Of a stretch of DNA of 64,000 bases, positions 16,869 through 59,763 are shown piece after piece. Origin of the DNA: a virus; the IMG/VR virus record IMGVR_UViG_3300030329_003201, positions 9,014 to 73,013 of that record. One strand, given 5' to 3'. The notes under the pieces were generated by a model. That model was not told the DNA's origin. It saw only the letters and a list, made by a program, of their open reading frames with translations, and ran no database searches. Position 1 is the first letter of the stretch. Each line of letters starts with the position of its first letter. The position numbers and the translations under genes were made by a program.

Positions 16869-19800
16869 CTATCGTTCGCGAGGAGGTTTAATTTCCTTCG
16901 CCCTTTGTTTCTCTTCCCATAATAATCGCTCTGTCAACTCTACTTCTTTGGCTTCTGGCGTCTTGACCAGTCTAGGTCTAAAGAATACGCCTAGCCGCTC
17001 TCCTTCCAAGCCGATCTCAGGGCGCGGACCAACACCTCGTGTCCAATACGAAGAGTCCTCTATTTTGTCGTAAAGGTTCTTGTCTGGTGTTGTTGGCCCA
17101 AACAAGTCTTCTTCTATGTACCCATGGTGCTCTCTGTACTCACGCATCTTGTTGGCGAGATAAAGAACAGTTTCGACATATCCTACGTCAGCCCTGTCGA
17201 ACTGAACCCATGAATCCGCACTTCGACCGGATGGAATAATGCCAAAGCGTCTCTCTTTGATGGCGCTTGGTATTTGCGGAATGGAGCGAATAATCAAGCT
17301 TGGCACCGTTTGGTCCAAAGCTTGTCCAATTTTTGGGATTTTACTAACCCAGGTTTCTCCAGGTATATCGATTACTGGAACTGGCATTTGTAGCGCATTT
17401 TTCCACAACCAGTAGTTTCTTGGATTCTGAGCAACCCAAACCTCAGTTTGCGACGGATATTCTTTCTTCAACTCATTAGTGATTGGAACAGGGGTGGCGT
17501 CAAGAAAGTCTAGGACGAACAATCCGCCAGTCATATATATATCCAATTCAACAATGCTGGTTGGAATCACGTCTCCAGCGAGCCCTCGTGTCCTGAAGAT
17601 TTCCTCGTCAAACATGTATACCAAGGGCTGCTGAAGAAGCGGATTCAGACGAGCCAGGAAACGAAGACCGTTCTCTCTTTCTTCTTTTGACGCATTGCGA
17701 TTAAATCCGCCGCTAATAAACGCACCAATCTCTCTGTGTAGATTGATTGCATCCATAAGAGGAACCGGCGCTGCCAAAAATCTTACGCCTTGGTAAATGC
17801 TTTTATTTGCGTGTGCATTCCTAAACAGGACGCTCAGCCTCTGAGAGGTGTAGTCGTCCTCCATGAGGATGCTGCTTCCTTCAGTGTTCTGCTGGTTCAA
17901 CCCTCGCATCATCCGAATCTGGGCCATAAGCCTATGTGGATTTGTTACTAAGGTGTCGTAGAAGAGGTTGAGGTTGTTCCTTGTGTAGGAGTAGAACAGG
18001 AATCCTCTTCGCAAAACCTGCTTTTCCCAATCGGTCAACTTCGAATAGTCATACATGGCGTCGGTAGCTGTTTTTGCTGCCTCTGCCATTGACCTCCCGT
18101 TGTAAAGCTCATCAACAAAGACGCCCGACCTAAAGTAGTTATCAATCGAAGTAGCTGTTTCGACGAGTAACCGCTGTGCTTGGCCTGGAGCTTCAGCCAC
18201 AATCTTGTGCCACGCAGCTTCGTTTTTCTCCAAGTCACGAAGCATGTGTGATGCGTTTCCGCTTTTTACAAAAGAGGTGTTTAGCTTATAAAGCTTCATT
18301 GCATCAAGAAGCATTTCAGTAGTGAAAATGCGACCGTCTTTGCAAACCAAAGCTCTTGCGGAAGAAACGCTGTTAATGTTTGGCCCATCACCCCAAAGTC
18401 TGGCCGATAAAATTCCCGACAGGCGAGGATGGGCAAGCGCCCCTATAAGACCGCCTTCAATACGCACACCATCTGCGCCAACTTTCAAACCAAGACCAGA
18501 TTTTTGGTAGATCTGAAACAGCGAACCAACCGTAATGCCCTGGTAATAATGAACGTTTGGCTGACCAATACCAACCGTTACACCCTGACGAAGCATTGAA
18601 TAGGTGAACCCATAGAGCCTAAGCGTGTAATCAAGCGTGTCCGCAATCAGAATCTTTGCGGCAACGCCTGGCTTTAGTCTTAATTCGGGGTCTAAGGCTT
18701 CATCGCCAAATAGGAATTCTCTTCCAAGCTCTGTCGCAACGTCTTCACCGCGCTTTCCTCGTTTTTCAAAAGCCTCAGCCACCCTACCTTTTGCGCCTTT
18801 ACCAAAAGCCCCCTGTCCGCTTACTCTGTCTATAGCAGCATTTAGTTCATCAAGAACCATTGGAGGAACAAGAGTGCGTGATCCATCTGGCGCAACCCAA
18901 TCGACCCAGTCTTCTGTGGCAGATCCGAACTTGAATCCCCAAGCATTTAAGATTTCATGCGCCGCTGTGTAGGCAGCCATGTCATGGATGGTATGCGTCT
19001 GCTGTGCGCCTTCGGGTGCTTTTAAATCTAGATACGGTATCCGACGTGTATCATCGTCCCAATCCTGACGTGGATAGATTGGATCTCCATCAGCCGCAGC
19101 GCCTGGTTCTGCTGGCCTAACAACCTCATCAATGTCTCCGCGCCGCCCTTCTCTAAATCCAGACGGAGCTTGAATAATGTTTCCTTCTGCGTCACGAACA
19201 ATCGCGGCACCGCCTGGACGAAGCTCCATATTTATGTAGTGCTTTACGCGCTCCATAAATCGCGTTGCGTCTTTACCGTTTGCATATTGTGAAACAAGAT
19301 CGTCTGTTCTTGCCGTAATCCCGATTTCTACCAACTTATCAACGAACTTGGCTTGGATTTCTCTGGCCCTCATGCGAACAATCAGTTGAATCGCGGCATG
19401 TCGTGCATCATATGCAGGAAGCACATCTGGTCGCGTTCCAGTCTCAAGACCGTGCTTCTGAGCCCACTCAAAGAGATCCGGCCAATCATTACCGTAAAAA
19501 CTGGAATACAATCGAGACTTCGTCGCGTCATCCATGACAGAGAGCGCTGCTTTTGCTTGAGCGGCGCTACCCGAAATACACTCAACAATATCGGTCACTC
19601 GTTGATCTAATAGATTGTACCTGTCGTGAAGTCCACGCTCAATAATATCGATACTGTCTCGCAGACCATTGACCTGATGCTTTGAAAGTTCGACAACATC
19701 TTGCTGAATGGCGTCGTCGATTAGATCACGCAAGGCAATAATCGCGGCTCGCTCGCCATCTGTCATTCTTCCGCTTGCAGCAAACAGTCCGGTTATTGCA

Positions 19801-22800
19801 TCAAGCTTTGACTCTAACTTTTGAAGCGTAATCGGGTCTGATCCCACTTTTGAGAAGCTGTCCTTAAGCCTCCATACTTGATCTGCATTCCGCACATCAA
19901 GAGGCGGTGTGAGCATTCTGGTAAGAGACTGGACTACTTCTAAAATACTTCCCTTGCTTCCTTCCTTTTGGAGCCTAAGCTGAACCCTCATTAACCAGTG
20001 AGGAATGTCGTCAATCTCCTGGTCCATTAGCTTTTTAGCTTCTACAAGCTCTGGAGTGACGTAGCCGGTTCGGCTCCAGTATCGTTTAGAACTGTCACCT
20101 TCCAGAACTCCAGCAACCTCAAAGGGTTCAAACACCTTGAACCTTTTCCGAAACCCGGAAATCATTGCCCCTAAAAACGGGACTTCCTCACCAGCGTCAA
20201 CGATTGTTGCCCAAGTGCGTTTTACAAGGTTTGGAGAAACGCTTTCTGTAAGCCTGCTCCGTGTTGACCCTACGCCTGCTTCCATGTCTGTTATAGACTC
20301 ATGAAGCTTATTGTATTCTACTACAGATATTACAGAAAAATCTGCGTCTGCTTCAAACATCCACTTGGGTACAGTATCCCTCGCTAACGGGTGAGCACCA
20401 AGCTCTTGAACAAGAACCCTTACCCTGCTTTGTTGTTGACGGTTCAGATCGAAAACAGGTATTTCTACTGGTCTTCCAGTAGCATCATCAAACACAGTCT
20501 CTGTCCGAATCTTTCCGGTTTCTGGATCACGAAGCCAACTTCCAACTTCATCGCTCATGCGTTGTTGAAGCTTCATTACTCTCTTTGAATCTGCTAATCT
20601 CTGCGGATTACCGAACACTGAGAGCATTTTGTTTGCAACTCGTTCTCGAATCCTTTCAGCACGAATCACAGGAACAATTGTTCTTGTGGTAAGCCTGACG
20701 ACTTTTTCTGCACCCCATTTCTTTCGTGCCGCTTCTGCATAAACATGACGAACAGCAAGGCCGACAACGTCCACTGCATTTACTTCTGTCGTGTCATCGC
20801 TAATATTTAGAATCCGTTGAAGCTGGCTTCTTCTTGCCTCAATGCGAGCAGCCTCTCTTCGTTTACCCGCCTGAGCAACTTCTCCGCCAAGTCCTCGTTT
20901 GGTTGTAAGCCTAACTGTGTAGAAATTCTTTAGTTCTCTATCATTCAGAACATCTGCCTTAGCTCTTTCGGAAATATCAATTCCGACATCAAGCTGTTCA
21001 TCAAAGAACGCAACGGCTTCTGGGCTCAGTTCATCAACCCTATCTGCGCGGATCATCCTCCACATTCTGTGAAGTGCGTAAATGATTTTTCTGAAGAAGT
21101 TGTGTGTTGGCCCATCTTGGGCGTGCTTTGTACTGAAATAGTAGGCAAACGAAGACCCAAGCTCATCCCAGCCTTTGGTGGTCAAGCGACGTGTACCGTC
21201 TGGAAGAACCTCGCTATCAAAGTTTCGGTACATAAACTCTGCAACATCATCAAACTCATCCACCATGAGGCTAGCAAGCATCTTGCCGCTTTCAGCAAAC
21301 AGGTGCCTTACATCACCAGTCTCGAAGAACGATTTAGTATGAAGGGCAGCGGCATCAAAGTCGTCAGGTGAGAAATCACGCAGCGGCTTGAATGGGCTTG
21401 AAGGAGGCCCATACATCACACGACCTCGTGACTTAAACGCCCTACCAGCACTTCCTGGCTTTGAAACATCATCCGAATCAACGATGGTTTTCGGATACAC
21501 GCCTCTAGATGCAGGACCAATAGACGCAGATGCGGTGCGTCCGTTTCCTGCCAATTCATCACGGGCTTGCGCTTGTTTCAACCAAGGGTTCGCATCAAGC
21601 ACTGAGTCCAAAGCAGCGTCAAATGCAAGCGTTCTCATGTTTGGCAAGAATGACGCGCCAGGATGGCTGAACGCATCGGAAGCAAACTGACCCTCCAACG
21701 TGTCAGCCATTCGCTCAGTTTGCGCCATTGCTGGCTTATGAAGCTCAGTCGAAACATCGCCAACGAGTCTACGATAGTTCGAATCCAGTCTGGCAATGTT
21801 GGACATCCGCCCACTTTCGATGCTCCTAATAAGGAGATTCAGCATCGAGTCGTTACGCCCAAACGTTTTAATCCAACCCTCAATGGTTTTGTGGGCTTCT
21901 AATGTTTTATTTAGTGATTCTAGCCTTTTAGGATTATTATTGTACCTAGACTTGACCTTGTTGATTTGCTTCTGAACAAGGCTTGAATCAATGCGGCGAG
22001 CATTACCCATCGCGTTTCTTACTTCACTTGGGAACAAGTCCACCAGTTCAGGCATCGCTGCAAAAGCATTTGCGCGTTCAACCAAGTAGGGCCTTGTCTC
22101 AGGATCCGACATCCAAGAATCAAATTCAACATCAGCCCTTTGCTGAAAAATACTTGTCCGCCGTCTTTCGACTGCTTTTTTAAAGACATGATCGAAACCA
22201 GCGCGATCTATTTCTCCTGCCTCGAATCTAGATCGGAGATCGGAGAACTGCTTTGTCTGCATTACATCGAAGACAATCCGGTTGTAATCAGCCTTTGCGT
22301 TGACATGTTTCCACTCGAAAAACCACTGAAGAGCGTCTTCGTGGCCTGGTTTTCCAACACCGTAGAAGTCATCGATTTTCTTTCCAGTAATGACCGGGGC
22401 GTCCGGCGCAAGCCCTCTTGTTAGGGCAACAAACCTATCTGAAAAATCCAACCAAGTTTCATTGGGGTGGCGTTCAAACCAAGAGTACTTCTTGTTCCCT
22501 TTTACAACATCATTAAAATCACTCGTCATTAGAGTGAGCGTCTTCATGACTGAGTTGTCTGCTGTCATGCCAATAGAGTCAGAAGACTCCGCCAGATGTT
22601 GAGCAAGCGCTATAGGGGAAGGAGTGACAGCAATCGCATCTACGCGAATCCTTTCCGTCCTAACGTTTTCAAGATCAGACAACAGCCTTTGTCGAAGCTC
22701 CGGTGATTCCACGACTTCCAGCATGTCTACAAGCTCTGACTCGCGAAGAAGCAACCACTTTCTGTTATCAAGAATCCTACCCGCTCCGACTTGAGACATT

Positions 22801-25800
22801 TCGATTGTATCGATGTCGATGATTGGCGCACTTGGCTTTTGCCAATCACGAGCCTTGATCGTATCGAGCAACTCGGGTGCCACGTTGAGACTAACCAAAG
22901 CACCACGATAAGGGTTCTTGAACCTTTCTGTGGCCTGAGCGTAGAATCTCATAATGTACAAAATTTCATTTCTTGTAAGATTAGAGCCTTTGTTTGAAAG
23001 AGCGGTCATATACCTGTCGCCCATTTCATACAATTCTCTAATCGACCGTGGCTGCGTTACAGCCGTAAACACCTGATTTTCAAACACTCTTGATGTTGGA
23101 TCAAGCAGGCTGTGCATTGAACGAGAAGCCAATGCTGTAAGGTACAAATCAAGACGCTGCTGGTATTCCAACCGCTTAGAAGGAATAAGATTTCCTTCAC
23201 CATCAAAATACTCAGCAGGATTCGGCCTCAAAGAGTCAACATCAGCGCTCTTCTGCTTCTTGTCGTACAATCCGCCAATGATTGAATCGTACTCATCAAT
23301 GTACTTGTTGATGATCTCTTGAGGGTTTGTAATGTCTGACCAAGAAATATTCCTTGTTTGACCATCAACGGTAATCTCTACGTCTGGAAGAGATGGCTCT
23401 GGAAGCCTTGCATAGTTCAACTCTACAGGACGCATTGATAGATACGTCAGATCGTGAAAAGAGAATGCACCATCTAAGCCGCCAGGAATAAGAGCAGGCT
23501 TTAGGTCTTTCGTCATCGGAACAACGTCAATCGTTAGACTCACTGGCTGATCAACACCATCAACCTTCGCTTTTACTTTGATTGATCTTGAAACATCGAC
23601 AAGCTCAGATGCTGTTCCAAGCGACTCCCGAATCCTATTGACCTGATGAGCCGAAAGCTGAGACAGTGAAACTTGTGCGGAAAGACCTTTGTTGATGTAG
23701 TCGTCAACAGTTTGGTGTGGCGTTCCGCCAGCGACCTCTTCAGCCTGATCCATTTGGTCTAAAAGCTGTTCTGCAAACCGCTTAGGGCCAACAAGCCTGC
23801 GAGCATCTAACGCCTGCCTATCAGGCTGTGAAAGCGGCTCAGGACGAGTAGGCGCTGGCGGGCCGTACATCATGCGGCGATCAGTTGGAGCCCATGTTCC
23901 CTTGTTGTTTACGCTCTTTGCTTGAGCAGGCTCAAACACCATGTAGTGAGTATCGTCTTTAGGGAGCCTCTGTCCTGGCGTCCACTGCCTTGTTTGCGGG
24001 TCATACCTTTCTGCAAAGAACAAATGAGCGTTTGCAATGATGCCATCATAGCCCATCTGTTCGACTACCTGCCGAGCAAACTCATTCTGGTAACGATTCC
24101 CCTCTGGACCCCAACTATTGAAGCGCTTGTTTACCATTCTATCCCAAAATTCCCACGCCTCGATTTGGGTCACGCCGTTTTTAGTTTTCCTGCCATCTAA
24201 GATGAACTTTTTTGTTCGTTCAAGCTCGTCTACAACAACGCCTTCTTTCTCAAGGCGAGCAGCAACTACATCAATGGCATCCATAAGAGATTCGCCAGTA
24301 CCATCATCAGCCCACCTAAATGAATGTGCAGCATCTTTCATCTTGCCGTACTGATCTAAAATCAGTGGGTTTTTTAAGCTTAAGTACACAGGGTATGCCT
24401 GCATCGCACCATCGGTTTCAAACTCAACCTTTGCAATGAAATCGACAATAAGATCTCGGTATACCTTCCTGACACCTGATGCGTCTCCATCATCAATAGC
24501 TTTGGCGAGCCGAGATTGTTGAGCATCGGTCAGCTTAGAAACATCGCCGGAATTGATAAAGTCTTTTGCTGCATTGATAATGTCAGCATCGGTGAAGCCA
24601 TCAAACTCAACCCTCAGGTTTGACTTGTGCTCATTGAATGCCTTGAACCACTCTGTTCCTTTCTCCATAAATCTTGGGTCTAAGGAAGAAAACGCATAGT
24701 GTTGTGTGAGGTCGTAAATCGAGTCTGTAAAATAAATAGAAGAGCCAAAATACCCTTCTACATTTCCAGGCTGAAACTCCTCAAAGCTAAAGGGGCTACC
24801 GTGGAACACCCGAAGAGGCTTTCCTTGATCGTCTACTACCTTGGAATCCTTGAACCAGGACTTGAACTCCGCAGATGAAGTCGGTGGTGCTACTGTGCGA
24901 TCTGGAAGAGGAGCAGGAGGACCATACATCTCCCTCCCTCTCGACCGAACGGGCTCTGTAGATGAGCCTGACATTTTGGCTATGTCAGCGTCATCAACCA
25001 TAAACGTTTGCGGATACCTTCCGGCTTCTACGATTGTACGAACCCTGTACCTGTAGCCTTCATCAAACTTTGAAGAACCAGGCAGGAACACATTGGCGAC
25101 ATAACCATCAACAACAGACTCTACTTTTTCGCCATCAACGATTGAGGTCACGACATAATTGACCCGATCACCAATATTAAAGTCGGGCTCGTCAAGCTCC
25201 GCACGCTTTGCGTCGTAGCCTCGTATTAGGCTTTCATACTCCTCAATGTATGCTGATTTCCAGTCATCACCCCTTGCGTTGGCATCAGCACTAAACCTAT
25301 ACCCACCGCCCTCTGGACGGTCATACCCAGTAACGGCGTCCCAGGTTTCTTCAAACGGAGTGAACACAGCGTGCTTTGATTTTTCGCTGCCGAGAACATA
25401 GTCCGATCTAGCAGCCAATCTGGCGTGTCGGTCGATTACGTCAGCATCAGCATCGGGGCGGTATTTAGTCTTCTCAAGCTTTGGAAGAGCGTCAACCTGG
25501 CGCTGGCGGACCCCTTCAAAACTGGGCTCAGTCTCTCTCGCGCCAAACGGAGCGTCATCAACTCTGACAGGCGCTTCTAAGTCTTCTGCAAACTTACCGG
25601 GCAACTCATCATCAAGGCGACGAAGCTCTTCAATAACATCGTCAATCGGTCGCGCGAGATTATCTAAATGATCTGGGCCAACGTCCAATGCGTTCCAGCT
25701 TTGAAGTCTTCTTCTATTTATTTCAGAAGCATCAGAAAGCTCCGAAGCCTTTCCTTCAAAAAGACGCTCAATATGATGTCGGAACATCGGATGAAAGTCT

Positions 25801-28800
25801 TCAAATGCGCGAGGATTCTTTCGGTTCATCGCCCGGAAAAGCTTTTTCAAACGAAGAATAAGTCGATTGAAAATCTTTCTTACTGAAGGGGCAAAATCAC
25901 TTCTGCTAATGACTTCAGGCATCTTGTTGTAAACAACATACTCAGCAAACTTCTCAGCGTACCACTCGTAAAAACCTACGTTTTTACCTTGGTTTTCAAG
26001 ATTCCATCTTGTGTACGATGTTTCTTCGACCAGCCCAGTACGCTTGAGTTCATCAAAATACACACGCCTAAGATTCGCCACCTCAGTGTCCGAAAGAAAC
26101 GAAGTCATAATCGCGTGCCCCATTTCATGGGCAAACGTATACGTCATAAGATCAGTAGTTTGGAGAGCTTCAGCGTGGGCGTCTATTCGGTTTGCGACCC
26201 ACCCTTCCGCAGCTTCTACTGGCGCAAGGCCTTCCGCAGCGTCATCAATGAAATCTACAACAAATCCTTTGATGCTGGCGTCAATATTTGTGCCGCCGCG
26301 CAATGCGTCTCGGTTTTTAATTAGGGCTTCAACAAACTTCTTTTCCCTCAGGTTTACGCCATCCTCAAGCATGCTGTGCGCCATTTTCCGAACAAGCTGA
26401 GGGAAGGTCACGCCTTCTAATACCGAGATGTCACCGTCATTAAGTCTATTGATAAGCTCTTCAAATGTAAGCGCTCGAAGCTTCTCATTCTCAAGAAGTC
26501 GCATTGGATCCAATGATCCTGCGATTCTTCCTTCCTGGTCGAAAAGCATCATCAGTGAATACACGCGATCACCAGGAAACTTTTTGTCGATGCCCTCTAA
26601 GGTTACAACCTTGGAACCACCGAACGAACCCTCCGGCCCTTCGATTCCCCTGTGTGATGTATCAATCCAGTCATCAAGCTTGATGTCTCTCAGAACACGA
26701 GAAGGAAGCGAGTGAACCATTGCGTACAAGAAGACATACACATCTTCTGGCAGACCTGCTTCCCGAAGATCATCAAGCTTGCTCAGGAGCGCTTGCTTGC
26801 CGAATCCAGGGGTTACTTCAGGAGAAGTTGACTTTGTAGTCCGTTTTATTTCGGCTTGTGCTTTGGCAATATTATCGCGCAAAGTCTTGATTTTCTTAGT
26901 AAAACCAGACTCAGCCTTCATTGTTGAAGTGTATTTAGTGAGCGCGGCACGAATCTTACTGACTGCCGCATCGTCATTATCTGCAATCGCCTTGATAAGA
27001 CGCCTTAGAAGCACAGTGGAGACTATTTGATGCGCTACCTTCGGGTCTGCGATTTTAGAGGCAATCATCACAAGCTGGTCTGCTGTTAGATCCTCAAGAA
27101 GCTTGCCCTCTAAATCGATTGAAGCAACCGACCGAATCCCAGCCAGCCTCCAGCCTTCATCGTCGGAAAGCTTCAGTTGGTCTACAAGCTCATCAGCAAC
27201 ATCAATGTCAATGAAACGAGGGCCACTTATGGGGTCAAACTTCAACCCAAACGCCTTGAGTAGAGAATCTTCTATCTCAATACCCTTGAGGTCATCACCA
27301 TACCGAATACCAAACTGCTTTGCTTCAAAGCCAGCAAGCACTTCGAGAGCATCTTCTACGCTTCCGGTCTTGCTAAGTGCTGCAAAATACAGTCTTTCAA
27401 CCAGCTTCATCTGCACTTTGATAGCGTCAAGCCCTTCATCAGCACCCTTGAGTGTGCCTTTTTCGGCCATGTCTTCCAATCGAGTCTGGATTCTTTTGTA
27501 CACTTCAGACTCCTGAAGCTTATCCAACCCTTCGAAATACTTAGATGCATGCAGCCCAAGACGGGAAACAAATGTGCGTCCGCGCTTTTCAGCCGTTGCG
27601 TGAATGATTCTGCGAACGGTTTCAACGGGAAGCCCCACAACCTCAAGCGAATCATAAATCTCTTTCCAATGCGATTTAGGAAGACCATGAAAAGGATTTC
27701 TGCCCTTTGCAATATTGTCTTCGTAGACTCTTAGAGCCATTTCTCCCCAGGTCGCTGCCACTCCTGGGAATGGGGCATTGATGTCTTTCGGTCTTCCAAA
27801 CCGTAAGCTTCCTTCATCGCCTTCAATCCCACGCGCCCTTCGAACATCTCCCCTGGCTTGTCGGGGTGAATAGTTAGACGACTGTCTGAACTCCCGCTCC
27901 AAGCTTCTTCTGGTCGTTCTCCACAGACGGTTGACTTCACTCTGGCTCAAATCATCAACAGTCATTACTGGGGTCGGGCCGCCAATCTTTGCTGTTTGAG
28001 CGTCCATCTTTTCAGCAAGAAGCGCATTTGCGTTTGCGTCGAAGATCTCCTGCGCCCTGGCTTGCCTTTGCGCTGGTGTCACCTGGGGAGCCACGTCGTT
28101 CCAAGCCCACTTAGGGGACCAGGCATACCTCGCGTGAGTACCAAAACTAGCGCCCGGCATCCGCCTAGCGGAGGCGGCATACCTAAACGGAGACGCGCCT
28201 ACACGGAACCCACCTTTTATCATTCCCGTTTCCCAAGGAATAAAAATGTCACCAGCAAAGCCTATGCCGCGCAGTGATTGGACAAACTTACCGTCAGGAT
28301 CAGCGCCTAATCCAACACCCCATTGAGCCAAGGCTCCTTGCAAGCCCCAGTCTTCCGCCTCTGGGTGCAACTTGTACAGATACTCATCCGTAAACGCGGC
28401 AGGCCGACCTGGCCTGTCATACGCTCCTAAAGTGATTACTTCACCAAGAGGATCCAGCCCGTACCTTTGAATTGCTGTGGCTCCAAACTCTGCCACTGCA
28501 CCAAATATTCTCATACGGTATATAAGCTCAGATTCTTGATGCCAGAAAACAGGGTTCCCTTCTTGATCAACATCAAATCTTTTGTCCACAAAAAGATCAG
28601 TCCCTATCCCTGCTGCCGTAGACCTACCGTGACCAAAGAGTCTTGTGTGTGCTCCTCGCCAGGCATTGACCGACATGGTGATTTTTTCATTCGTCCTGTC
28701 AACCCTTTCGAGAAGCGGCGCTGGAAGATACCCAAGCGGGGCCTTGTTCAGCACGTCAAATAATCCCCTAAGTCTTGGGATTTCATGGTCTTCAACACCT

Positions 28801-30983
28801 TCTCTTCTGTGACGCGATTTCTGCCTTTCAATAAAGTCGATAATGTTCTGCCCAACATTGGGGGTCAAAACAAAATCGGGATCCTCCATTGCTGCGATTT
28901 GAGCAAGACTTCCTACAACACTTGCCCACTCGGGCGTCCATTGATCTTGGCCCCGAAGAGCAGCGATGAGATCACTAGAAGTGTACTCATCCATATGCAT
29001 CCATCTAAAATGGAGATCTTTTCTGCTGAAGTTAAGCCATGCCTTTCGCAGGTACTCCTGCTTTTGTTCTTCGCTCAAAAAACCCGCAGAGCTAACATTA
29101 GTGCTAACAATACCCCACAAAGTCTTGATCGAATTGGTTCCCCTTGCGTCTTCGATCCCTTGATCAGGGAGAGTATCCAAAAGAACCCAATCAGCAAGTT
29201 CATAAACGGGAGTCGCTAAGGTGGTTGCTAACCTTTGCCCTGCACGAATCGCATCAAAGCCAGCCTCACCGTAGCCAAAAATCCAGTCGGATGCCTTTAC
29301 ACCACGAGGATTTTCAGCCCAAACAGACCTGTCCAATATCGCTTCTGCTGGTGCAAGGAGGGGATCCCACTTAGACAACCCTCTCATAATGTCACTGTCA
29401 GAATAATGGGCTAACGATGCACCCCATGTGGCGTCACCCCCCATGTAGTCCAAATACACTTCGCGAAGACTTTGATCGGGAAGCATATCAAGATGCAGGT
29501 TCTGCATTGCTGTGACAAGGTCATCATCTGAAAACTGAAGCTTGTCTTTAAACTGAATCATTCGAGACAAGGTCTGGTATGCGCCATGCGATTGGTTGTT
29601 TGTAGGCATCCGTATACCAGTAAAGTCGGTATACGATGGACCAACGTCTATCCAATCAGCCCATCGATCGGATTGACGCCTCTTTCCCCAAATAAGGGGC
29701 TTACCCAGATGGCGACCATCGCCAAATTCGCCGCTTGTTGTCCCATCAATGTAGTCTGTAAGCCAGTCGAACTTGCCATCATGGTAAGCCCGTCTTGCTT
29801 CTTCATAGGCCGTAATATACGCCAGAACTTGGTGTCCTCGGTTTTTCCAGCCATGAAATTGGTAAACGTTCGGATTCTCATCGTCGGAGGTCATATCTCT
29901 TAGCAACAACGACAATGTGTGAACGGTCCTAAGCTCGTCTTCACTCATGTGACCCTGCATCTTAGGTATTCTTGTTACCCCGTACTTCTGAAATTCCTTC
30001 GAACCTTCTTCAACATCTCGAAGCCACCACTCTTCACCAAGATCTTCCTCATTTGCATGAGGGCTGCCTTTGTACAGGAAAAGATTAATTCCTGGTGGCA
30101 TCCAAGACTGACGAGTTTGAGCAAACGTATTCCAGTTCCACTTACTAATATTTTTCGGCGCACCCTTTGTGCCAAACACCGATGTTACAAGGCCTGTTAC
30201 GCCGCCATAAATATCACCTAAGAGTGGAATTTCTTTAACTTTTCTGTCTATAGCGTCTGGTGCTTGCCACAGTTCGTTTTTAATAAAAGCGCCTGTGCCT
30301 CGTCGAACATTCGACCAAAGCTCTTTGCGAGTTTCAATAAGATCCGCTTCTTGAAAAGCCTCGCCCTTTTGCATGTGGTGTAGAAATGCGTTCCACCGGC
30401 CCATCTCTTCAATGCTGGCCGCAATGTCTTCGCGAATCTGTTGCTGCCTGTCCCCCTCTGCACGCATCTCATGGCTATCAGGACTCCCAGGCATCTCAAT
30501 CCGAATCGCACCACGATTCAGAACACGAATCTTTAGGAAATTTCGGTTGTCATGAAGCTGCCCCTCTGCCTCAAAAGCCTCTTTTACTTTTTGTTCGATC
30601 TCGCCAGCACCAAGTGTGCTTTGACTGTCTATGAAATCAATGACCTCCTCTCTAATCTCTTCGTCGCTCTTCCCTTCAGCCCTAAGCATTTCTTCGTAGT
30701 TAAGAAGGTTCGTAAACTGTAGGTCAGATAACTCTAACGTGCCATTACTTATCTCTAGCTCAAACACACTAACGTTCTCGCGACGTTCCTCTTCTTCTTC
30801 TTCCTCAAGTTCCTCTTCTGCTTCATCAATTGCACCAGTCAATTCGAGCGTAAGATCGTCAACTTCTGAGGATACGCCAGCGTTGGCTTTAAGGGGCTCT
30901 ATGCTGCCTGTTTCATCGGCCTCTTGAATAGCTCTACGAAGGGCGTCTTCTAACTCTCTTTCTTCGTCAGTTGGCTCAGCCAT
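16869..30983 (-). CDS. Giant (4704 aa) polyvalent ejection protein: zincin peptidase, SH3-like, ADP-ribosyltransferase-like and C-terminal ejection/LPD-type regions
   Basis: FAHEMGH (HExxH); FKSWFKDSKVVDDQGKPLRVFHGS...IYFTDS...PVYLSLKNPL...GYDGII; C-terminal DAMYDYSKLTDWEK...FLFYSY. Confidence 0.85.
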   Translation of the reverse strand: MAEPTDEERELEDALRRAIQEADETGSIEPLKANAGVSSEVDDLTLELTGAIDEAEEELEEEEEEERRENVSVFELEISNGTLELSDLQFTNLLNYEEMLRAEGKSDEEIREEVIDFIDSQSTLGAGEIEQKVKEAFEAEGQLHDNRNFLKIRVLNRGAIRIEMPGSPDSHEMRAEGDRQQQIREDIAASIEEMGRWNAFLHHMQKGEAFQEADLIETRKELWSNVRRGTGAFIKNELWQAPDAIDRKVKEIPLLGDIYGGVTGLVTSVFGTKGAPKNISKWNWNTFAQTRQSWMPPGINLFLYKGSPHANEEDLGEEWWLRDVEEGSKEFQKYGVTRIPKMQGHMSEDELRTVHTLSLLLRDMTSDDENPNVYQFHGWKNRGHQVLAYITAYEEARRAYHDGKFDWLTDYIDGTTSGEFGDGRHLGKPLIWGKRRQSDRWADWIDVGPSYTDFTGIRMPTNNQSHGAYQTLSRMIQFKDKLQFSDDDLVTAMQNLHLDMLPDQSLREVYLDYMGGDATWGASLAHYSDSDIMRGLSKWDPLLAPAEAILDRSVWAENPRGVKASDWIFGYGEAGFDAIRAGQRLATTLATPVYELADWVLLDTLPDQGIEDARGTNSIKTLWGIVSTNVSSAGFLSEEQKQEYLRKAWLNFSRKDLHFRWMHMDEYTSSDLIAALRGQDQWTPEWASVVGSLAQIAAMEDPDFVLTPNVGQNIIDFIERQKSRHRREGVEDHEIPRLRGLFDVLNKAPLGYLPAPLLERVDRTNEKITMSVNAWRGAHTRLFGHGRSTAAGIGTDLFVDKRFDVDQEGNPVFWHQESELIYRMRIFGAVAEFGATAIQRYGLDPLGEVITLGAYDRPGRPAAFTDEYLYKLHPEAEDWGLQGALAQWGVGLGADPDGKFVQSLRGIGFAGDIFIPWETGMIKGGFRVGASPFRYAASARRMPGASFGTHARYAWSPKWAWNDVAPQVTPAQRQARAQEIFDANANALLAEKMDAQTAKIGGPTPVMTVDDLSQSEVNRLWRTTRRSLEREFRQSSNYSPRQARGDVRRARGIEGDEGSLRFGRPKDINAPFPGVAATWGEMALRVYEDNIAKGRNPFHGLPKSHWKEIYDSLEVVGLPVETVRRIIHATAEKRGRTFVSRLGLHASKYFEGLDKLQESEVYKRIQTRLEDMAEKGTLKGADEGLDAIKVQMKLVERLYFAALSKTGSVEDALEVLAGFEAKQFGIRYGDDLKGIEIEDSLLKAFGLKFDPISGPRFIDIDVADELVDQLKLSDDEGWRLAGIRSVASIDLEGKLLEDLTADQLVMIASKIADPKVAHQIVSTVLLRRLIKAIADNDDAAVSKIRAALTKYTSTMKAESGFTKKIKTLRDNIAKAQAEIKRTTKSTSPEVTPGFGKQALLSKLDDLREAGLPEDVYVFLYAMVHSLPSRVLRDIKLDDWIDTSHRGIEGPEGSFGGSKVVTLEGIDKKFPGDRVYSLMMLFDQEGRIAGSLDPMRLLENEKLRALTFEELINRLNDGDISVLEGVTFPQLVRKMAHSMLEDGVNLREKKFVEALIKNRDALRGGTNIDASIKGFVVDFIDDAAEGLAPVEAAEGWVANRIDAHAEALQTTDLMTYTFAHEMGHAIMTSFLSDTEVANLRRVYFDELKRTGLVEETSYTRWNLENQGKNVGFYEWYAEKFAEYVVYNKMPEVISRSDFAPSVRKIFNRLILRLKKLFRAMNRKNPRAFEDFHPMFRHHIERLFEGKASELSDASEINRRRLQSWNALDVGPDHLDNLARPIDDVIEELRRLDDELPGKFAEDLEAPVRVDDAPFGARETEPSFEGVRQRQVDALPKLEKTKYRPDADADVIDRHARLAARSDYVLGSEKSKHAVFTPFEETWDAVTGYDRPEGGGYRFSADANARGDDWKSAYIEEYESLIRGYDAKRAELDEPDFNIGDRVNYVVTSIVDGEKVESVVDGYVANVFLPGSSKFDEGYRYRVRTIVEAGRYPQTFMVDDADIAKMSGSSTEPVRSRGREMYGPPAPLPDRTVAPPTSSAEFKSWFKDSKVVDDQGKPLRVFHGSPFSFEEFQPGNVEGYFGSSIYFTDSIYDLTQHYAFSSLDPRFMEKGTEWFKAFNEHKSNLRVEFDGFTDADIINAAKDFINSGDVSKLTDAQQSRLAKAIDDGDASGVRKVYRDLIVDFIAKVEFETDGAMQAYPVYLSLKNPLILDQYGKMKDAAHSFRWADDGTGESLMDAIDVVAARLEKEGVVVDELERTKKFILDGRKTKNGVTQIEAWEFWDRMVNKRFNSWGPEGNRYQNEFARQVVEQMGYDGIIANAHLFFAERYDPQTRQWTPGQRLPKDDTHYMVFEPAQAKSVNNKGTWAPTDRRMMYGPPAPTRPEPLSQPDRQALDARRLVGPKRFAEQLLDQMDQAEEVAGGTPHQTVDDYINKGLSAQVSLSQLSAHQVNRIRESLGTASELVDVSRSIKVKAKVDGVDQPVSLTIDVVPMTKDLKPALIPGGLDGAFSFHDLTYLSMRPVELNYARLPEPSLPDVEITVDGQTRNISWSDITNPQEIINKYIDEYDSIIGGLYDKKQKSADVDSLRPNPAEYFDGEGNLIPSKRLEYQQRLDLYLTALASRSMHSLLDPTSRVFENQVFTAVTQPRSIRELYEMGDRYMTALSNKGSNLTRNEILYIMRFYAQATERFKNPYRGALVSLNVAPELLDTIKARDWQKPSAPIIDIDTIEMSQVGAGRILDNRKWLLLRESELVDMLEVVESPELRQRLLSDLENVRTERIRVDAIAVTPSPIALAQHLAESSDSIGMTADNSVMKTLTLMTSDFNDVVKGNKKYSWFERHPNETWLDFSDRFVALTRGLAPDAPVITGKKIDDFYGVGKPGHEDALQWFFEWKHVNAKADYNRIVFDVMQTKQFSDLRSRFEAGEIDRAGFDHVFKKAVERRRTSIFQQRADVEFDSWMSDPETRPYLVERANAFAAMPELVDLFPSEVRNAMGNARRIDSSLVQKQINKVKSRYNNNPKRLESLNKTLEAHKTIEGWIKTFGRNDSMLNLLIRSIESGRMSNIARLDSNYRRLVGDVSTELHKPAMAQTERMADTLEGQFASDAFSHPGASFLPNMRTLAFDAALDSVLDANPWLKQAQARDELAGNGRTASASIGPASRGVYPKTIVDSDDVSKPGSAGRAFKSRGRVMYGPPSSPFKPLRDFSPDDFDAAALHTKSFFETGDVRHLFAESGKMLASLMVDEFDDVAEFMYRNFDSEVLPDGTRRLTTKGWDELGSSFAYYFSTKHAQDGPTHNFFRKIIYALHRMWRMIRADRVDELSPEAVAFFDEQLDVGIDISERAKADVLNDRELKNFYTVRLTTKRGLGGEVAQAGKRREAARIEARRSQLQRILNISDDTTEVNAVDVVGLAVRHVYAEAARKKWGAEKVVRLTTRTIVPVIRAERIRERVANKMLSVFGNPQRLADSKRVMKLQQRMSDEVGSWLRDPETGKIRTETVFDDATGRPVEIPVFDLNRQQQSRVRVLVQELGAHPLARDTVPKWMFEADADFSVISVVEYNKLHESITDMEAGVGSTRSRLTESVSPNLVKRTWATIVDAGEEVPFLGAMISGFRKRFKVFEPFEVAGVLEGDSSKRYWSRTGYVTPELVEAKKLMDQEIDDIPHWLMRVQLRLQKEGSKGSILEVVQSLTRMLTPPLDVRNADQVWRLKDSFSKVGSDPITLQKLESKLDAITGLFAASGRMTDGERAAIIALRDLIDDAIQQDVVELSKHQVNGLRDSIDIIERGLHDRYNLLDQRVTDIVECISGSAAQAKAALSVMDDATKSRLYSSFYGNDWPDLFEWAQKHGLETGTRPDVLPAYDARHAAIQLIVRMRAREIQAKFVDKLVEIGITARTDDLVSQYANGKDATRFMERVKHYINMELRPGGAAIVRDAEGNIIQAPSGFREGRRGDIDEVVRPAEPGAAADGDPIYPRQDWDDDTRRIPYLDLKAPEGAQQTHTIHDMAAYTAAHEILNAWGFKFGSATEDWVDWVAPDGSRTLVPPMVLDELNAAIDRVSGQGAFGKGAKGRVAEAFEKRGKRGEDVATELGREFLFGDEALDPELRLKPGVAAKILIADTLDYTLRLYGFTYSMLRQGVTVGIGQPNVHYYQGITVGSLFQIYQKSGLGLKVGADGVRIEGGLIGALAHPRLSGILSARLWGDGPNINSVSSARALVCKDGRIFTTEMLLDAMKLYKLNTSFVKSGNASHMLRDLEKNEAAWHKIVAEAPGQAQRLLVETATSIDNYFRSGVFVDELYNGRSMAEAAKTATDAMYDYSKLTDWEKQVLRRGFLFYSYTRNNLNLFYDTLVTNPHRLMAQIRMMRGLNQQNTEGSSILMEDDYTSQRLSVLFRNAHANKSIYQGVRFLAAPVPLMDAINLHREIGAFISGGFNRNASKEERENGLRFLARLNPLLQQPLVYMFDEEIFRTRGLAGDVIPTSIVELDIYMTGGLFVLDFLDATPVPITNELKKEYPSQTEVWVAQNPRNYWLWKNALQMPVPVIDIPGETWVSKIPKIGQALDQTVPSLIIRSIPQIPSAIKERRFGIIPSGRSADSWVQFDRADVGYVETVLYLANKMREYREHHGYIEEDLFGPTTPDKNLYDKIEDSSYWTRGVGPRPEIGLEGERLGVFFRPRLVKTPEAKEVELTERLLWEEKQRAKEIKPPRER

Positions 30984-54900: not shown

Positions 54901-55002
54901 GATTCCAAACTACCGCAAATGTCTCGATTTGTCACTGGTCGGGCTCAAATCTTGCGCTCCAACCTGAAGCCGATAGGCTGGTTCGGTCACAAAGGAGACA
55001 TC

Positions 55003-56936: not shown

Positions 56937-57543
56937 TTGGATATCCCCCCCGCGAAGTTTTTTTCAACATCATTTTTGGCCCTCCCCCCCCATGCGCGTG
57001 TGGTTCGGGCATATATCACCCCCCCCATGCGCGTGGGGCGCGTGGCGTGTGGCGTCCGCGTGTGGCGTGTGGCGCGTCATGGGTCCATATTGCCTCCGAT
57101 ACCGGCACGACCGGCACGACCGGCACGACCGAACAACGACCGCACACGGGCCACGACCGAACGACCCGAACGAACGACCCGAAACAGGACCGAACGAACA
57201 GCCGAAACGACCGAAACCCGAACGACCCGAACGACCGGGGCAGGAATCGAAACGACCGGAGCCGAAACGATAGGAGCCCGAACGACCGGAGCCGGAGCCG
57301 GAGCCGGAGCACCCACAACCCCTTTCGAGGTAGCAAGGCGCAAAGAAGGAACACGAGCCCATGCGATAAACCGACCAGTCACAGCGCATCGGGCTCGTTG
57401 CCGGGGATGCGTTGCGGATAGTCCGTCAATGGCAAGAATTGCGTTCATAAGGACAAGGTAACATTTTGAAATGGGTTTCGCTTGAATATTTCTGATTTTA
57501 TCGAAAATGGCTTGACGTACAGCGTTTTTGGATATCCCCCCCC
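56937..57543. repeat. Repeat-rich, strand-skewed region (putative genome end or packaging region)
   Basis: TTGGATATCCCCCCC at 56937 and 57528; CCCCCCCCATGCGCGTG at 56984 and 57019; ACCGGCACG x3; GAACGACC and GGAGCC repeats. Confidence 0.7.
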
Positions 57544-57750
57544 ATCATCATTTTCTGAAAACGTAGGTTCAAAGCGGAAAATGAAAGAATCGAAAAAAAC
57601 TTTGATTTATTTTGATTTTTTTTCTCCATTTATTTCAGGGGTTTACGAGCGAGCATTGCCGCAGTACAGCGGTTCGTTGTAAGTGTCTGTTTTTATTGAG
57701 CTTTTTTTCAGATTCGCCGAAAAGGTAGGTTGAACCTGGAAAATAAAAAG

Positions 57751-57779
57751 TTGGATTATTCGATTTCTCAAAGTAGATT
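57751..57779 (+). promoter_or_regulatory. Candidate early sigma70 promoter with A-rich UP element
   Basis: AAAATAAAAAG, then TTGGAT-N17-TAGATT. Confidence 0.45.
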
Positions 57780-57785
57780 GATTGA

Positions 57786-58430
57786 GCGAAACGGACTTGC
57801 CGTTGCAAACACAAAGCTGATACCGACAAAGCGCCACGCTCTAAGGCAGTCCCTTTCAGGGGTTCCCCGGAGCACCGAGGTGGCAGGGCGTCGGGGGATG
57901 ACCAGGGCATAGTAAACAAACGCGACCCCCTGGCGGAAACGTGGCTCTTTCGAGGGCATCTGTTCTTTAGTTACGACATTATCGACCACATGCTGCACAC
58001 ATGGCATAGGCTGTTAGGCGTCAGGCATCGGAGTACCCCCCCCATTCGTGGGACCAGGGAGAAGCAGATGAAGCGCGGGACGTAAGAGGGCGAAAAAATC
58101 CCTTCCTGTGAGATGTACTGGTAAAGCGAGTGGACTACATATGGCCGATTCGCTCCCTTTGGGGGTGTGATGATTCGTGTTGATTCGTGAATAAGGCTTT
58201 CCCTCTGCCGGTGTTTGAGCCAGTGGGACTGTCTATGAAGCGTCTAACAGCGTCTAACAGCATCCCATCGCTCTATTCCCGCAAGTTCGGGCCGAGGGCT
58301 AAGAGGGGAGAGGCAAAAAAGCTATGGGAATTGCATAGGTAAACACGCGGGGGATGGGCTTGTCCCGTCCTCCGCCTTACCCAATAGCGTCATGGGTTCT
58401 ATTCATGGCGCTATCCGGTGAGCTTTATTC
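57786..58430 (+). ncRNA. Candidate large structured non-coding RNA
   Basis: ORF-poor; several helices with G-U pairs on the + strand, UUCG/GAAA tetraloops, long-range complementarity. Confidence 0.5.
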
Positions 58431-58514
58431 TATCGCGTAACGTTACGCGCGATGGAGTATTCCTATTCCAACACAAAGTCTGTAACGCGCGAGCGTAACA
58501 GTAAAGGCAACCCA

Positions 58515-58664
58515 ATGTACAATATCACTGTCATCGATGGAGTGTTCCATCTCGTATGCGCGGAAACCCTTGAAACCACTGGGATTTTCGCAGATAGTCC
58601 AGAAGCAATCGAGCGTGACCAGGGCCTAACATACGACCCATCCACAGACACGTTCGACCAGTAA
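58515..58664 (+). CDS. Early hypothetical protein
   Basis: AAGGCAACCCA before ATG (MYNITVIDG). Confidence 0.6.
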   Translation: MYNITVIDGVFHLVCAETLETTGIFADSPEAIERDQGLTYDPSTDTFDQ

Positions 58665-58745
58665 GCACAAACCCCCAACGCCCCCTTGGAAAAACCAGGG
58701 GGGACCTCTGTCTCAAAAATACAACGTCCAAGGAGGACACCCATC

Positions 58746-58937
58746 ATGGCTAAATCCAACCCACAACTCGTTCGCGCCCTCGTCCGTCAAGCACCCGAGG
58801 CTACCAGCACCAAGCAGGCCAAGAAGGTCGTGCGTGCAGCCTTCCGCGAGGTCTACGGGCCTGAGTGGTTCGCTACCACCAGCACCAAGAAGCTCAAGGC
58901 ACGAGTCCAGAAAGCTTACATCGCGGGCACGCTGTAG
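58746..58937 (+). CDS. Early small basic protein
   Basis: AGGAGG RBS; strong codon bias; stop abuts the hammerhead. Confidence 0.75.
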   Translation: MAKSNPQLVRALVRQAPEATSTKQAKKVVRAAFREVYGPEWFATTSTKKLKARVQKAYIAGTL

Positions 58938-59005
58938 TCGAAACGCCCCCGCGTGGGGCGTCTGGCGAGGATTGACCACCCGCCACTGATGATGACACTT
59001 GGTCA
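58934..59005 (+). ncRNA. Type II hammerhead ribozyme with pseudoknot
   Basis: GTC-GAAA-CGCCCC/GGGGCG-TC-TGGCG/CGCCA-CTGATGA-T-GAC; loop TGACCA pairs with TGGTCA (59000-59005). Confidence 0.9.
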
Positions 59006-59038
59006 CGCGCACCCACTTACACACCCAGGAGGCAACCG

Positions 59039-59215
59039 ATGATCTTTGAACTTGTAAACCGCTACGGCTACGTGGCCGGAGTATGTCCATCACGCAAGGA
59101 AGCTGAAGTCCTGCGCGAAGTGCTCAAAGAGCGAGCACAGTACGCAGCCAAGCACATAAGCGAGCCCTTTGACTGGTGGCACCTGAGCATCAACCCGCGA
59201 CTCGTAATCGAGTAA
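59039..59215 (+). CDS. Early hypothetical protein (58 aa, not in ORF track)
   Basis: GGAGGCAACCG-ATG; MIFELVNRYGYVAG... Confidence 0.65.
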   Translation: MIFELVNRYGYVAGVCPSRKEAEVLREVLKERAQYAAKHISEPFDWWHLSINPRLVIE

Positions 59216-59250
59216 CCGACAACCCCACACCCACACCCACAAGGAGAACC

Positions 59251-59763
59251 ATGTACATCTGGAACCCTCGCAACATACAGCCCCACTTTCACCACTTCAA
59301 TCACCGTGCGCCTTTCCGCATGATATGGCTTCAGTTTCAACGTGAGGGCTTGTCAAGCGCTGCCGCCCTCCGATTGATAAAGCACCTGGTGGGCTCCACA
59401 TTAATATCACGCCCGCACGTTGACCAGGGAGTAGGCTCAAAGCTCTCCAAGATTGAGCGCAAGGTAGCATTCCTGCACTCGCACCAGTGGGAATACACCA
59501 CGCAAGGAACCTGGCTCAACCTGTACCGAGCGGTTCACTGCTACGGCGGACCCGAGGAGGGTGGTTGGTGGTACTGGATGTTCGAACCTGTGAACGGAAA
59601 GCGCATCGATCATATGTCCCCGCGCCTTCAAGAAGAGTACCGGCTCCGAGTCAACCGCACATTCGGACCACCCAACGACAACATCTACCGAGGAGAATAC
59701 CTGCTCGCCCGCGTCGAGACAGGGTGTCCAAAGTTTCCTGGTCCACGTCCACAGTGGGGGTAA
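59251..59763 (+). CDS. Early hypothetical protein
   Basis: AAGGAG RBS; contains YGGPEEGGWWY. Confidence 0.7.
   Translation: MYIWNPRNIQPHFHHFNHRAPFRMIWLQFQREGLSSAAALRLIKHLVGSTLISRPHVDQGVGSKLSKIERKVAFLHSHQWEYTTQGTWLNLYRAVHCYGGPEEGGWWYWMFEPVNGKRIDHMSPRLQEEYRLRVNRTFGPPNDNIYRGEYLLARVETGCPKFPGPRPQWG

Follow-up and report, generated by a model that had tools for sequence, protein, structure and literature searches.

A conserved RNA domain of about 250 nucleotides in the putative early leader of an uncultured marine phage

What occupies the gene-free stretch that precedes the small rightward genes of an uncultured marine virus? The initial annotation had marked positions 57786 to 58430 as an ORF-poor, highly paired region of roughly 640 nucleotides (nt) and proposed that it encodes a new large noncoding RNA, similar in size to ROOL and GOLLD, at the head of the early transcript. 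Here, we examined this region within the window, a stretch of 64,000 nt that corresponds to bases 9014 to 73013 of a 73,013-bp viral record with a completeness rating of 99%. Our results indicate that the region most likely holds a real and new RNA domain, conserved and about 250 nt long, within a putative early leader that is otherwise ordinary and evolves fast, and not a demonstrated giant ornate RNA.

The leftward genes of the phage extend from about 2,600 to 54,900 and include a 4,704-aa ORF, an SU10-type adaptor and the large terminase, while the rightward genes start at 54,919 with the gene for a single-stranded DNA-binding protein (SSB), followed by a 278-aa ORF. The sole Pfam match of the 4,704-aa ORF (16869-30983, minus strand) is the ADP-ribosyltransferase domain of polyvalent proteins at residues 2051 to 2100, and its product is probably an injected virion protein. 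Behind the 278-aa ORF lies a gene-free stretch of 1.6 kb, which consists of a repeat array, an AT-rich part and the flagged region, and further downstream there are small rightward ORFs without an assigned function. No sign of lysogeny genes was found in the parts of the phage that were scanned.

The lineage appears to have no close cultured phage, judging from the large terminase, which shares at most 26% identity with phage records, and from the outcome of DNA and small-protein searches. Neither blastn in distant mode with positions 57600-58700 nor tblastn with the 63-aa product of the second early ORF and a 170-aa protein returned a match among 50,697 phage records. An IMG/VR search with the SSB yielded 80 loci, only one of which was close, namely, G001 (reached via loci L002 and L082; SSB 87% and 278-aa ORF 94% identical); this contig ends in the repeat array, and the flagged region is absent from it. 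IMG/VR searches with the 195-aa, 49-aa and 63-aa proteins found nothing, two exact patterns taken from conserved islands gave 0 matches there, and a search of genome contigs returned a single spurious locus, L085. The protein P0001 was reported on 19 contigs. A metagenome search provided two contigs: L083, which is 99.98% identical to the window and begins at 57788, and L084, an 11.4-kb contig that is the nearest divergent relative (its 170-aa protein is 62% identical). In addition, Logan contigs from four runs were compared over 57600-59100, with listed substitutions that reach 58350 only; X6 is almost identical to the window, and X8, X9 and X10, from three studies, differ by a few percent. 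The comparison therewith covers two divergent relatives, one of them solely as a partial list of contig differences, and all strain-variant counts for X8, X9 and X10 given below are minimum numbers among the differences listed. The landmarks of the locus are as follows.

57031-57310: GC-rich degenerate tandem-repeat array with periods of 6 to 37
57400-57780: AT-rich part of the gene-free stretch, GC content of 0.39
57751-57779, plus strand: promoter-like element TTGGAT-N17-TAGATT, with a putative start near 57786
57786-57806, plus strand: 5′-terminal stem-loop at the putative +1, window fold of −5.0 kcal/mol
58515-58664, plus strand: first conserved early ORF, 49 aa, strongly acidic, 82% identity to L084 1362-1511
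58746-58937, plus strand: second conserved early ORF, 63 aa, basic, 78% identity to L084 1592-1798
58936-59004, plus strand: predicted type II hammerhead ribozyme, 37.5 bits with Rfam Hammerhead_II (gathering score of 37)

The G001 contig stops inside the counterpart of the repeat array and the L084 contig starts inside it; the array may represent a genome end or packaging region or may be a mere assembly breaker. A run of seven to eight C residues followed by AT occurs four times (56985, 57020, 57537 and 58037), compared with 0.38 expected; all copies are on the plus strand within 1.1 kb, two share an identical 15-nt lead-in, and similar motifs are also present in G001.

The description of the region as ORF-poor was borne out. 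No plus-strand ORF longer than 60 aa lies inside the flagged span, and with TGA read as W or TAG as Q, no recoded ORF of at least 70 aa was found except those clipping the edges; a recoded ORF was rejected, since neither reading opens a spanning plus-strand frame. No frame within 57800-58450 is conserved in L084, the best plus-strand similarities being short and spread over several frames, and the ORFs in the counterpart stretch of L084 are unrelated to those of the window. From the common first base to the first conserved ORF, the gene-free length is 729 nt in the window (57786-58514) and 702 nt in L084. An upstream ATG at 58452 is absent from L084. Neither of the two conserved ORFs had a match in Pfam or PHROG, and the tblastn search with the 63-aa product was likewise negative. 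The translation of the 49-aa ORF contains 10 Asp or Glu residues and 1 Arg; small acidic proteins that are expressed first by phages are often anti-restriction DNA mimics.

As initially proposed, the region stands at the head of the rightward early genes, downstream of a promoter-like element that is conserved in L084. The block 57700-57802, comprising this element and the first 17 bases of the presumed transcript, is nearly invariant in L084. The element itself has the sigma-70 spacing of 17 nt and is weak by the sigma-70 consensus; its −35 hexamer matches the consensus at three of six positions and differs in L084, and the element is missing from the promoter-scan listing. The same scan found no plus-strand promoter-like site between 57786 and 58490, and transcription of the ORFs therefore appears to rely on the upstream start. 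On its upstream side, the unit is closed by a terminator-like hairpin with T runs (57665-57681). The −10 hexamer and the bases following it recur in X8 and X9, in loose ends of contigs of a second type. This second, short contig has only an 83-nt block (57672-57754, 10 differences) in common with the window and continues into other sequence with a −10-like motif, so that the block looks like a reused promoter-upstream module.

The 5′-terminal stem-loop has a counterpart in L084 at 660-683, a perfect 7-bp hairpin with the same first base and a different 3′ arm (z score of −3.34, 0/200 shuffles). In X8 and X9, changes at 57792, 57793, 57796 and 57800, together with a 3-nt insertion, would re-register the stem and not abolish it when the arms are paired by hand. 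A hairpin at the presumed first transcribed base is thus found in every variant, i.e., in the window, L084 and X8/X9. The independent and near-identical metagenome scaffold L083 starts 2 nt past the putative transcription start, which may be a coincidence or a physical DNA end.

Is the region as a whole highly paired? The minimum free energy (MFE) of the flagged span gave a z score of −0.88 on the plus strand, with 3 of 20 shuffles as stable, and of −0.19 on the minus strand. When the plus strand was folded by thirds, the z scores were +0.20 (57786-58030), −0.42 (58010-58270) and −4.93 (58262-58510) in the window and −0.24, +0.96 and −4.67 in the matching thirds of L084, and those of the first 480 nt stayed about 0 irrespective of phage and strand. 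Hence, strong pairing applies to the 3′ end only, and neither the whole span nor its first 480 nt folds better than shuffled sequence. All the individual elements that had been pointed out are present where they had been placed, namely, three tetraloop hairpins, two long hairpins at 58347-58375 and 58384-58414, two pairs of complementary segments and the promoter-like hexamers. However, the tetraloop hairpins are of chance-level stability (for instance, z of +0.40 for 58036-58058), and the helix between 57957-57966 and 58060-58070, although its complement is there, is not kept in L084, where we read 3 of 10 pairs as broken in alignment A1. The end coordinate of 58430 also needs to be shifted, as the structured part continues to about 58510. 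It was largely ordinary GC-rich hairpins that made the region look like an ornate RNA of 640 nt.

Comparison with L084 leads to the same boundary. Identity is about 50% (0.43 to 0.54) over 57803-58265, and the sequence is well conserved from 58265 onward. Within the poorly conserved part, exact islands of 7 to 11 nt, collinear and with kept spacing, are shared from 58010 to 58270. A structure-aware alignment of the first 480 nt with L084 scored 182.7 (55 pairs), and 2 of 10 nulls, which ranged from 22.8 to 214.6, scored higher; a shared fold with L084 in this part cannot be demonstrated. A count based on a MAFFT alignment of the first 476 nt gave 25 pairs kept and 56 broken and is unreliable in both directions, because the sequence alignment misplaces the 5′ hairpins. 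The proposal of a giant ornate noncoding RNA is therefore partly supported as a whole, and what does not hold is the picture of a single RNA of about 640 nt in the manner of ROOL and GOLLD, given the overall z score and the lack of a demonstrable shared fold over the first 480 nt.

The first 480 nt are also the most variable part between strains, and in three runs the contigs are interrupted between about 57934 and 58004, which points to variability at the strain level in this interval. Nevertheless, the closer strains support three local helices in addition to the 5′-terminal hairpin. Taking pairs predicted with a probability of at least 0.5 in the window folded alone, the 32 listed substitutions changed at least four pairs on both sides (57852/57860, 58036/58165, 58205/58223 and 58206/58222), all four of which are still paired, and none of 5000 circular shifts of the substitution set reached four such compensated pairs. 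One-sided changes kept at least two predicted pairs and broke at least seven, indicating that much of the predicted fold in this part is wrong or unselected. The helices and repeats in question are these.

57851-57861, plus strand: small hairpin, pair probability of 0.74
about 58033-58040 with 58161-58168, plus strand: predicted long-range helix, pair probability of 0.98
58201-58227, plus strand: hairpin closing a conserved apical sequence, with anchors at 58207 and 58216
58010-58021 with 58240-58251 and 58250-58261, plus strand: 12-nt element and two tandem complementary copies spaced by 10 nt

In the first hairpin, the pair C-G is replaced by U-A in X8, X9 and X10 (57852 C>U with 57860 G>A), and the same stem, capped by a different loop, is found in L084 immediately before a common 7-mer anchor. 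Support for the long-range helix is partial: X8 again exchanges C-G for U-A (58036 C>U with 58165 G>A), its changes at 58038 and 58039 break inner pairs, and in L084 at most 4 bp can form. The X8 segment 58036-58058 is of the L084 type. The hairpin 58201-58227 is altered in X8 by 58205 C>G with 58223 G>U and by 58206 U>C with 58222 A>G, while 58203 C>U leaves a wobble pair and 58224 U>A replaces U·U by U-A; pairing is thereby preserved or improved by all six changes. G·U accounts for two of the new pairs, which argues for selection on RNA and not for templated DNA repair of a palindrome. In L084, the flanks of the two anchors form an arm-swapped stem, with G-C where the window has C-G. Finally, the 12-nt element is invariant in L084, where the downstream tandem pair has a different sequence, a 13-nt spacing and a complementarity of only 6 to 7 bp; in X8, 58021 U>C converts U·G into C-G in the 12-nt pairing. 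The element and its copies would act either as RNA pairing partners or as DNA sites. Two tandem repeats with a period of 10 bp (58167-58190 and 58239-58261) lie 70 nt apart.

The segment 58262-58510 constitutes a new conserved RNA domain of about 250 nt with five to six stem-loops, on the basis of its folding stability and of its covariation with L084. On the plus strand, none of 50 shuffles was as stable as the window sequence, and the minus-strand z scores were −3.18 in the window and −3.40 in L084. The structure conservation index of the two sequences was 0.77, with a column-shuffle z score of −9.1. RNAalifold returned 64 consensus pairs, 7 of which are changed on both sides and none broken, a count favored by the derivation of the consensus from the same two sequences on which it was made. 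Only 2 of 500 shuffles reached the value observed by the pair counter, and sliding the partners cut the pairing from 100% to 38 to 48%. A purpose-written, banded structure-aware aligner scored the domain at 262.4 (70 matched pairs), a value that none of 20 nulls reached (maximum of 224.4), although these nulls kept 111 of 241 L084 positions fixed. G·U pairs occupy 22 of 128 pair cells; the opposite strand would have mismatches at these places, which makes the fold plus-strand specific. The long-range part of the fold is unsettled, since in a reading of L084 against the window folded alone the changed pairs were 14 kept and 11 broken on the plus strand (8 and 10 on the minus strand). A covariance model of the domain, R1, found only its own three sources among 85 sources (1.27 Mb); it detected a single copy in the genome of the phage itself, and the 81 loci from other phages with an SSB contained none. 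The helices of the domain, compared with L084, are listed below.

58270-58273 with 58296-58299, around 58278-58281 with 58288-58291, plus strand: one G-C to C-G swap
58305-58314 with 58374-58382, plus strand: one swap
58351-58358 with 58364-58371, plus strand: six of eight pairs differ, all kept
58384-58395 with 58403-58414, plus strand: invariant
58426-58438 with 58447-58459 (outer pairs to 58417 and 58469), plus strand: one swap and two wobble changes
58480-58488 with 58493-58501, plus strand: one wobble change, GNRA-type tetraloop in both phages

The region thus does contain helices that are retained on the plus strand through compensatory change. The structure-aware aligner also offered an alternative helix between 58324-58329 and 58461-58466, which would cross the helix 58305/58374. 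The core of the 58426-58459 hairpin is a perfect and invariant 16-nt palindrome, and a related short motif occurs four more times by 58500. This hairpin is listed as terminator-like, and the tail that follows it is not a clear U run; the region contains four terminator-like sites, compared with a shuffle mean of 3.2. The last hairpin of the domain ends 14 nt ahead of the start codon. A purine-rich Shine-Dalgarno-like tract (58311-58337; about 1165-1183 in L084) lies 8 nt before an ATG that begins an ORF of 4 codons (2 in L084), which could be a start-stop mini-ORF or no more than a piece of a helix. As a reading of the region, a mini-ORF with such a tract at 58323 was set aside; its AUG also falls within the alternative conserved helix.

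How, then, is the stretch best read? We give a slightly better than even chance to the interpretation that 57786-58514 is a long, structured, untranslated 5′ leader of the first rightward, presumably early, operon, with a putative start and end and presumed transcription. This is the simpler reading, because nothing marks the 3′ end of a separate gene and no plus-strand promoter-like site precedes the first ORF; it is further supported by the noncoding character of the stretch in both phages, its kept length and the nearly invariant promoter block. Against it stand the weakness of the promoter and the terminator-like listing of the 58426-58459 hairpin, which would fit a separate RNA. In such a leader, host RNA polymerase would start near 57786 at the conserved promoter-like element, and the RNA would begin with a stem-loop that shields its 5′ end, followed by about 480 nt of fast-evolving spacer with a few selected local hairpins. 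The 3′ domain would directly adjoin the ribosome-binding site of the opening gene and serve as a cis-acting element of its own message. In T7, RNase III hairpins are found ahead of the first early gene, and in lambda ahead of N, whose leader is RNase III sensitive; the domain might likewise be a processing or stabilizing structure. It might also bind a host or phage factor that governs how the first genes are translated or read through.

Alternatively, the same promoter could drive a free-standing large noncoding RNA of about 680 to 730 nt that is ended by the 58426-58459 hairpin or by processing and that acts in trans or accumulates. An ORF-free stretch of conserved length would suit such an RNA, both of whose ends would be protected by the stable 5′ hairpin and the strong 3′ hairpins, and phages do make abundant RNAs of about 800 nt from ORF-less gaps, as the cited text describes for ICP1 (PMC7567579). 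We nevertheless consider it unlikely. The hairpin that could end the RNA is in the terminator-like listing, yet it lacks a clear U run and such sites are about as numerous as in shuffled sequence; the downstream ORFs have no promoter-like site of their own, Rfam gives no match, and the first 480 nt, the most strain-variable part, have neither excess stability nor a demonstrable fold in common with L084. It is quite unlikely, too, that 58262-58510, alone or joined to the 480 nt before it, represents a novel class of phage RNA that is cut from the early transcript as an entity of its own. If it were, the excised RNA might capture a host or phage factor that switches read-through or translation, as put or nut RNAs do, or it might instead build up as a stable species, as the ICP1 transcript does.

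Could the conserved elements work chiefly at the DNA level? Operator or iteron sites for a phage protein might be represented by the palindrome (58431-58450), by the short motif that recurs and by the 10-bp repeats at 58167-58190 and 58239-58261; single-strand initiation or packaging signals beside the repeat array are a further candidate. The palindrome is perfect and invariant and, with the recurring motif, could be a DNA operator, the two being the chief grounds for suspecting a DNA or protein-binding component; the tandem repeats are one helical turn apart, the region adjoins the GC-rich array where the contigs of two relatives end, and the minus strand of the 3′ domain also beats shuffles (z of −3.2 and −3.4). 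However, the stems keep pairing despite sequence change, and a sequence-specific DNA site would not tolerate the difference at six of eight pairs seen in helix 58351-58371. Moreover, the G·U cells would be A·C on the opposite strand, the plus strand is more stable than the minus strand in both phages, and neither the sequence nor the spacing of the tandem copies is shared by the window and L084. We therefore regard a function mainly in DNA as improbable. Last, a spacer that is for the most part neutral, at the entering genome end, with hairpins incidental to GC-rich sequence and only the promoter and the ribosome-binding region functional, would agree with the z scores about 0, the near-random identity to L084 and the two nulls above the real structural score in the first 480 nt but is very improbable, as it leaves the 3′ domain unexplained and accounts neither for the four compensated pairs of the close strains nor for the collinear islands of 58010-58270.

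The leader reading raises the question of whether similar arrangements are known. With Rfam 15 at the gathering score, the whole window yielded only the single tRNA gene (2131-2203) and Hammerhead_II, with no match inside 57786-58514. At E values up to 10, a scan of 57000-59400 gave only chance-level matches inside the region (BsrF with 19.1 bits against a gathering score of 50, ar7 with 18.9 against 60 and mir-1244 with 21.1 against 105), and GOLLD and ROOL were absent. The initial failure to match the region by eye to a known class thus agrees with the covariance models inside the flagged span. Several other candidates were set aside. No tRNA or tmRNA-like element was found. A search with the 13-nt rrn boxA consensus at up to three mismatches gave no site in 57786-58514 and 23 sites in the whole window, compared with 21.2 expected. 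A CsrA-type GGA sponge was rejected as well, the roughly 13 GGA motifs counted by eye being near the composition level by eye.

The early region of T7 has tandem host-type promoters, a leader of several hundred nucleotides and an RNase III hairpin before gene 0.3. By analogy, the locus studied here resembles it in its podophage-like genome, a gene-free stretch beside repeats, a promoter with a long leader behind it, strong hairpins and a first protein that is small and acidic; it differs in having no sequence or protein similarity and only one promoter-like site. The short leader element that is complementary to repeated copies in its own leader (58010-58021 versus 58240-58261) is reminiscent of the mechanism of antisense RNAs of the P1/P7 type, and the C4 antisense family is included in Rfam. 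In contrast to that type, there is no Rfam match here, the complementarity in L084 is short, and lysogeny genes were not seen in the parts scanned. Antisense RNAs embedded in leaders are described for P1, P7, N15, P4 and phiR73 in the cited text (PMC7567579).

In lambda, nutL and nutR, each a boxA with a boxB hairpin, are described as RNA elements of the early-operon leaders (PMC4807359). In both cases, RNA elements, which are cis acting in lambda and would be so here, lie in the untranslated interval from the early promoter to the first early gene, with a gene for a small basic protein shortly downstream. Unlike in lambda, there is no boxA and no N-like protein recognizable in Pfam or PHROG, and the putative leader is several times longer, with five to six hairpins instead of one. 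GOLLD and ROOL are described as large ornate RNAs that often occur in phages (10.1101/2024.12.08.627333; PMC7567579). The region likewise is phage borne, ORF free and several hundred nucleotides long, whereas it matches neither covariance model at E values up to 10, has no excess stability over its whole length, is poorly conserved over two thirds of it and does not adjoin the tRNA gene. For ICP1, an abundant noncoding transcript of about 800 nt in a 1-kb ORF-less gap by the lysis genes is described from RNA-seq data (PMC7567579). Both are lytic phages with an ORF-less gap of similar size, but the stretch reported here, whose RNA is predicted, is at the head of the early genes.

One further RNA element lies downstream. 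Directly after the 63-aa ORF, the segment 58936-59004 aligns over its full length to Hammerhead_II, with the catalytic core aligned, and is a predicted member of this family; a hammerhead is also predicted in the syntenic place of L084 (1797-1864, 47.0 bits). Cleavage by the ribozyme would sever the early message behind the leader and the two small ORFs, releasing these as a separate 5′ fragment of about 1.2 kb. Hammerheads inside phage and prophage operons have been described (PMC3088659), and a type II ribozyme between early genes with a long ORF-free leader upstream would be in keeping with them. It differs from hammerheads at the end of a leader in that it follows two small ORFs, so that the leader would not be released alone.

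Collectively, these results offer a concrete and bounded target, a covariation-supported RNA domain, about 250 nt long, that lies immediately ahead of the first early gene. Early expression is when a phage establishes its anti-defense and takeover functions. Should a processing or regulatory role of the domain be borne out, a new RNA family would be gained, along with an entry point to the control of early genes in a lineage of marine phages that appears to be without a cultured relative.
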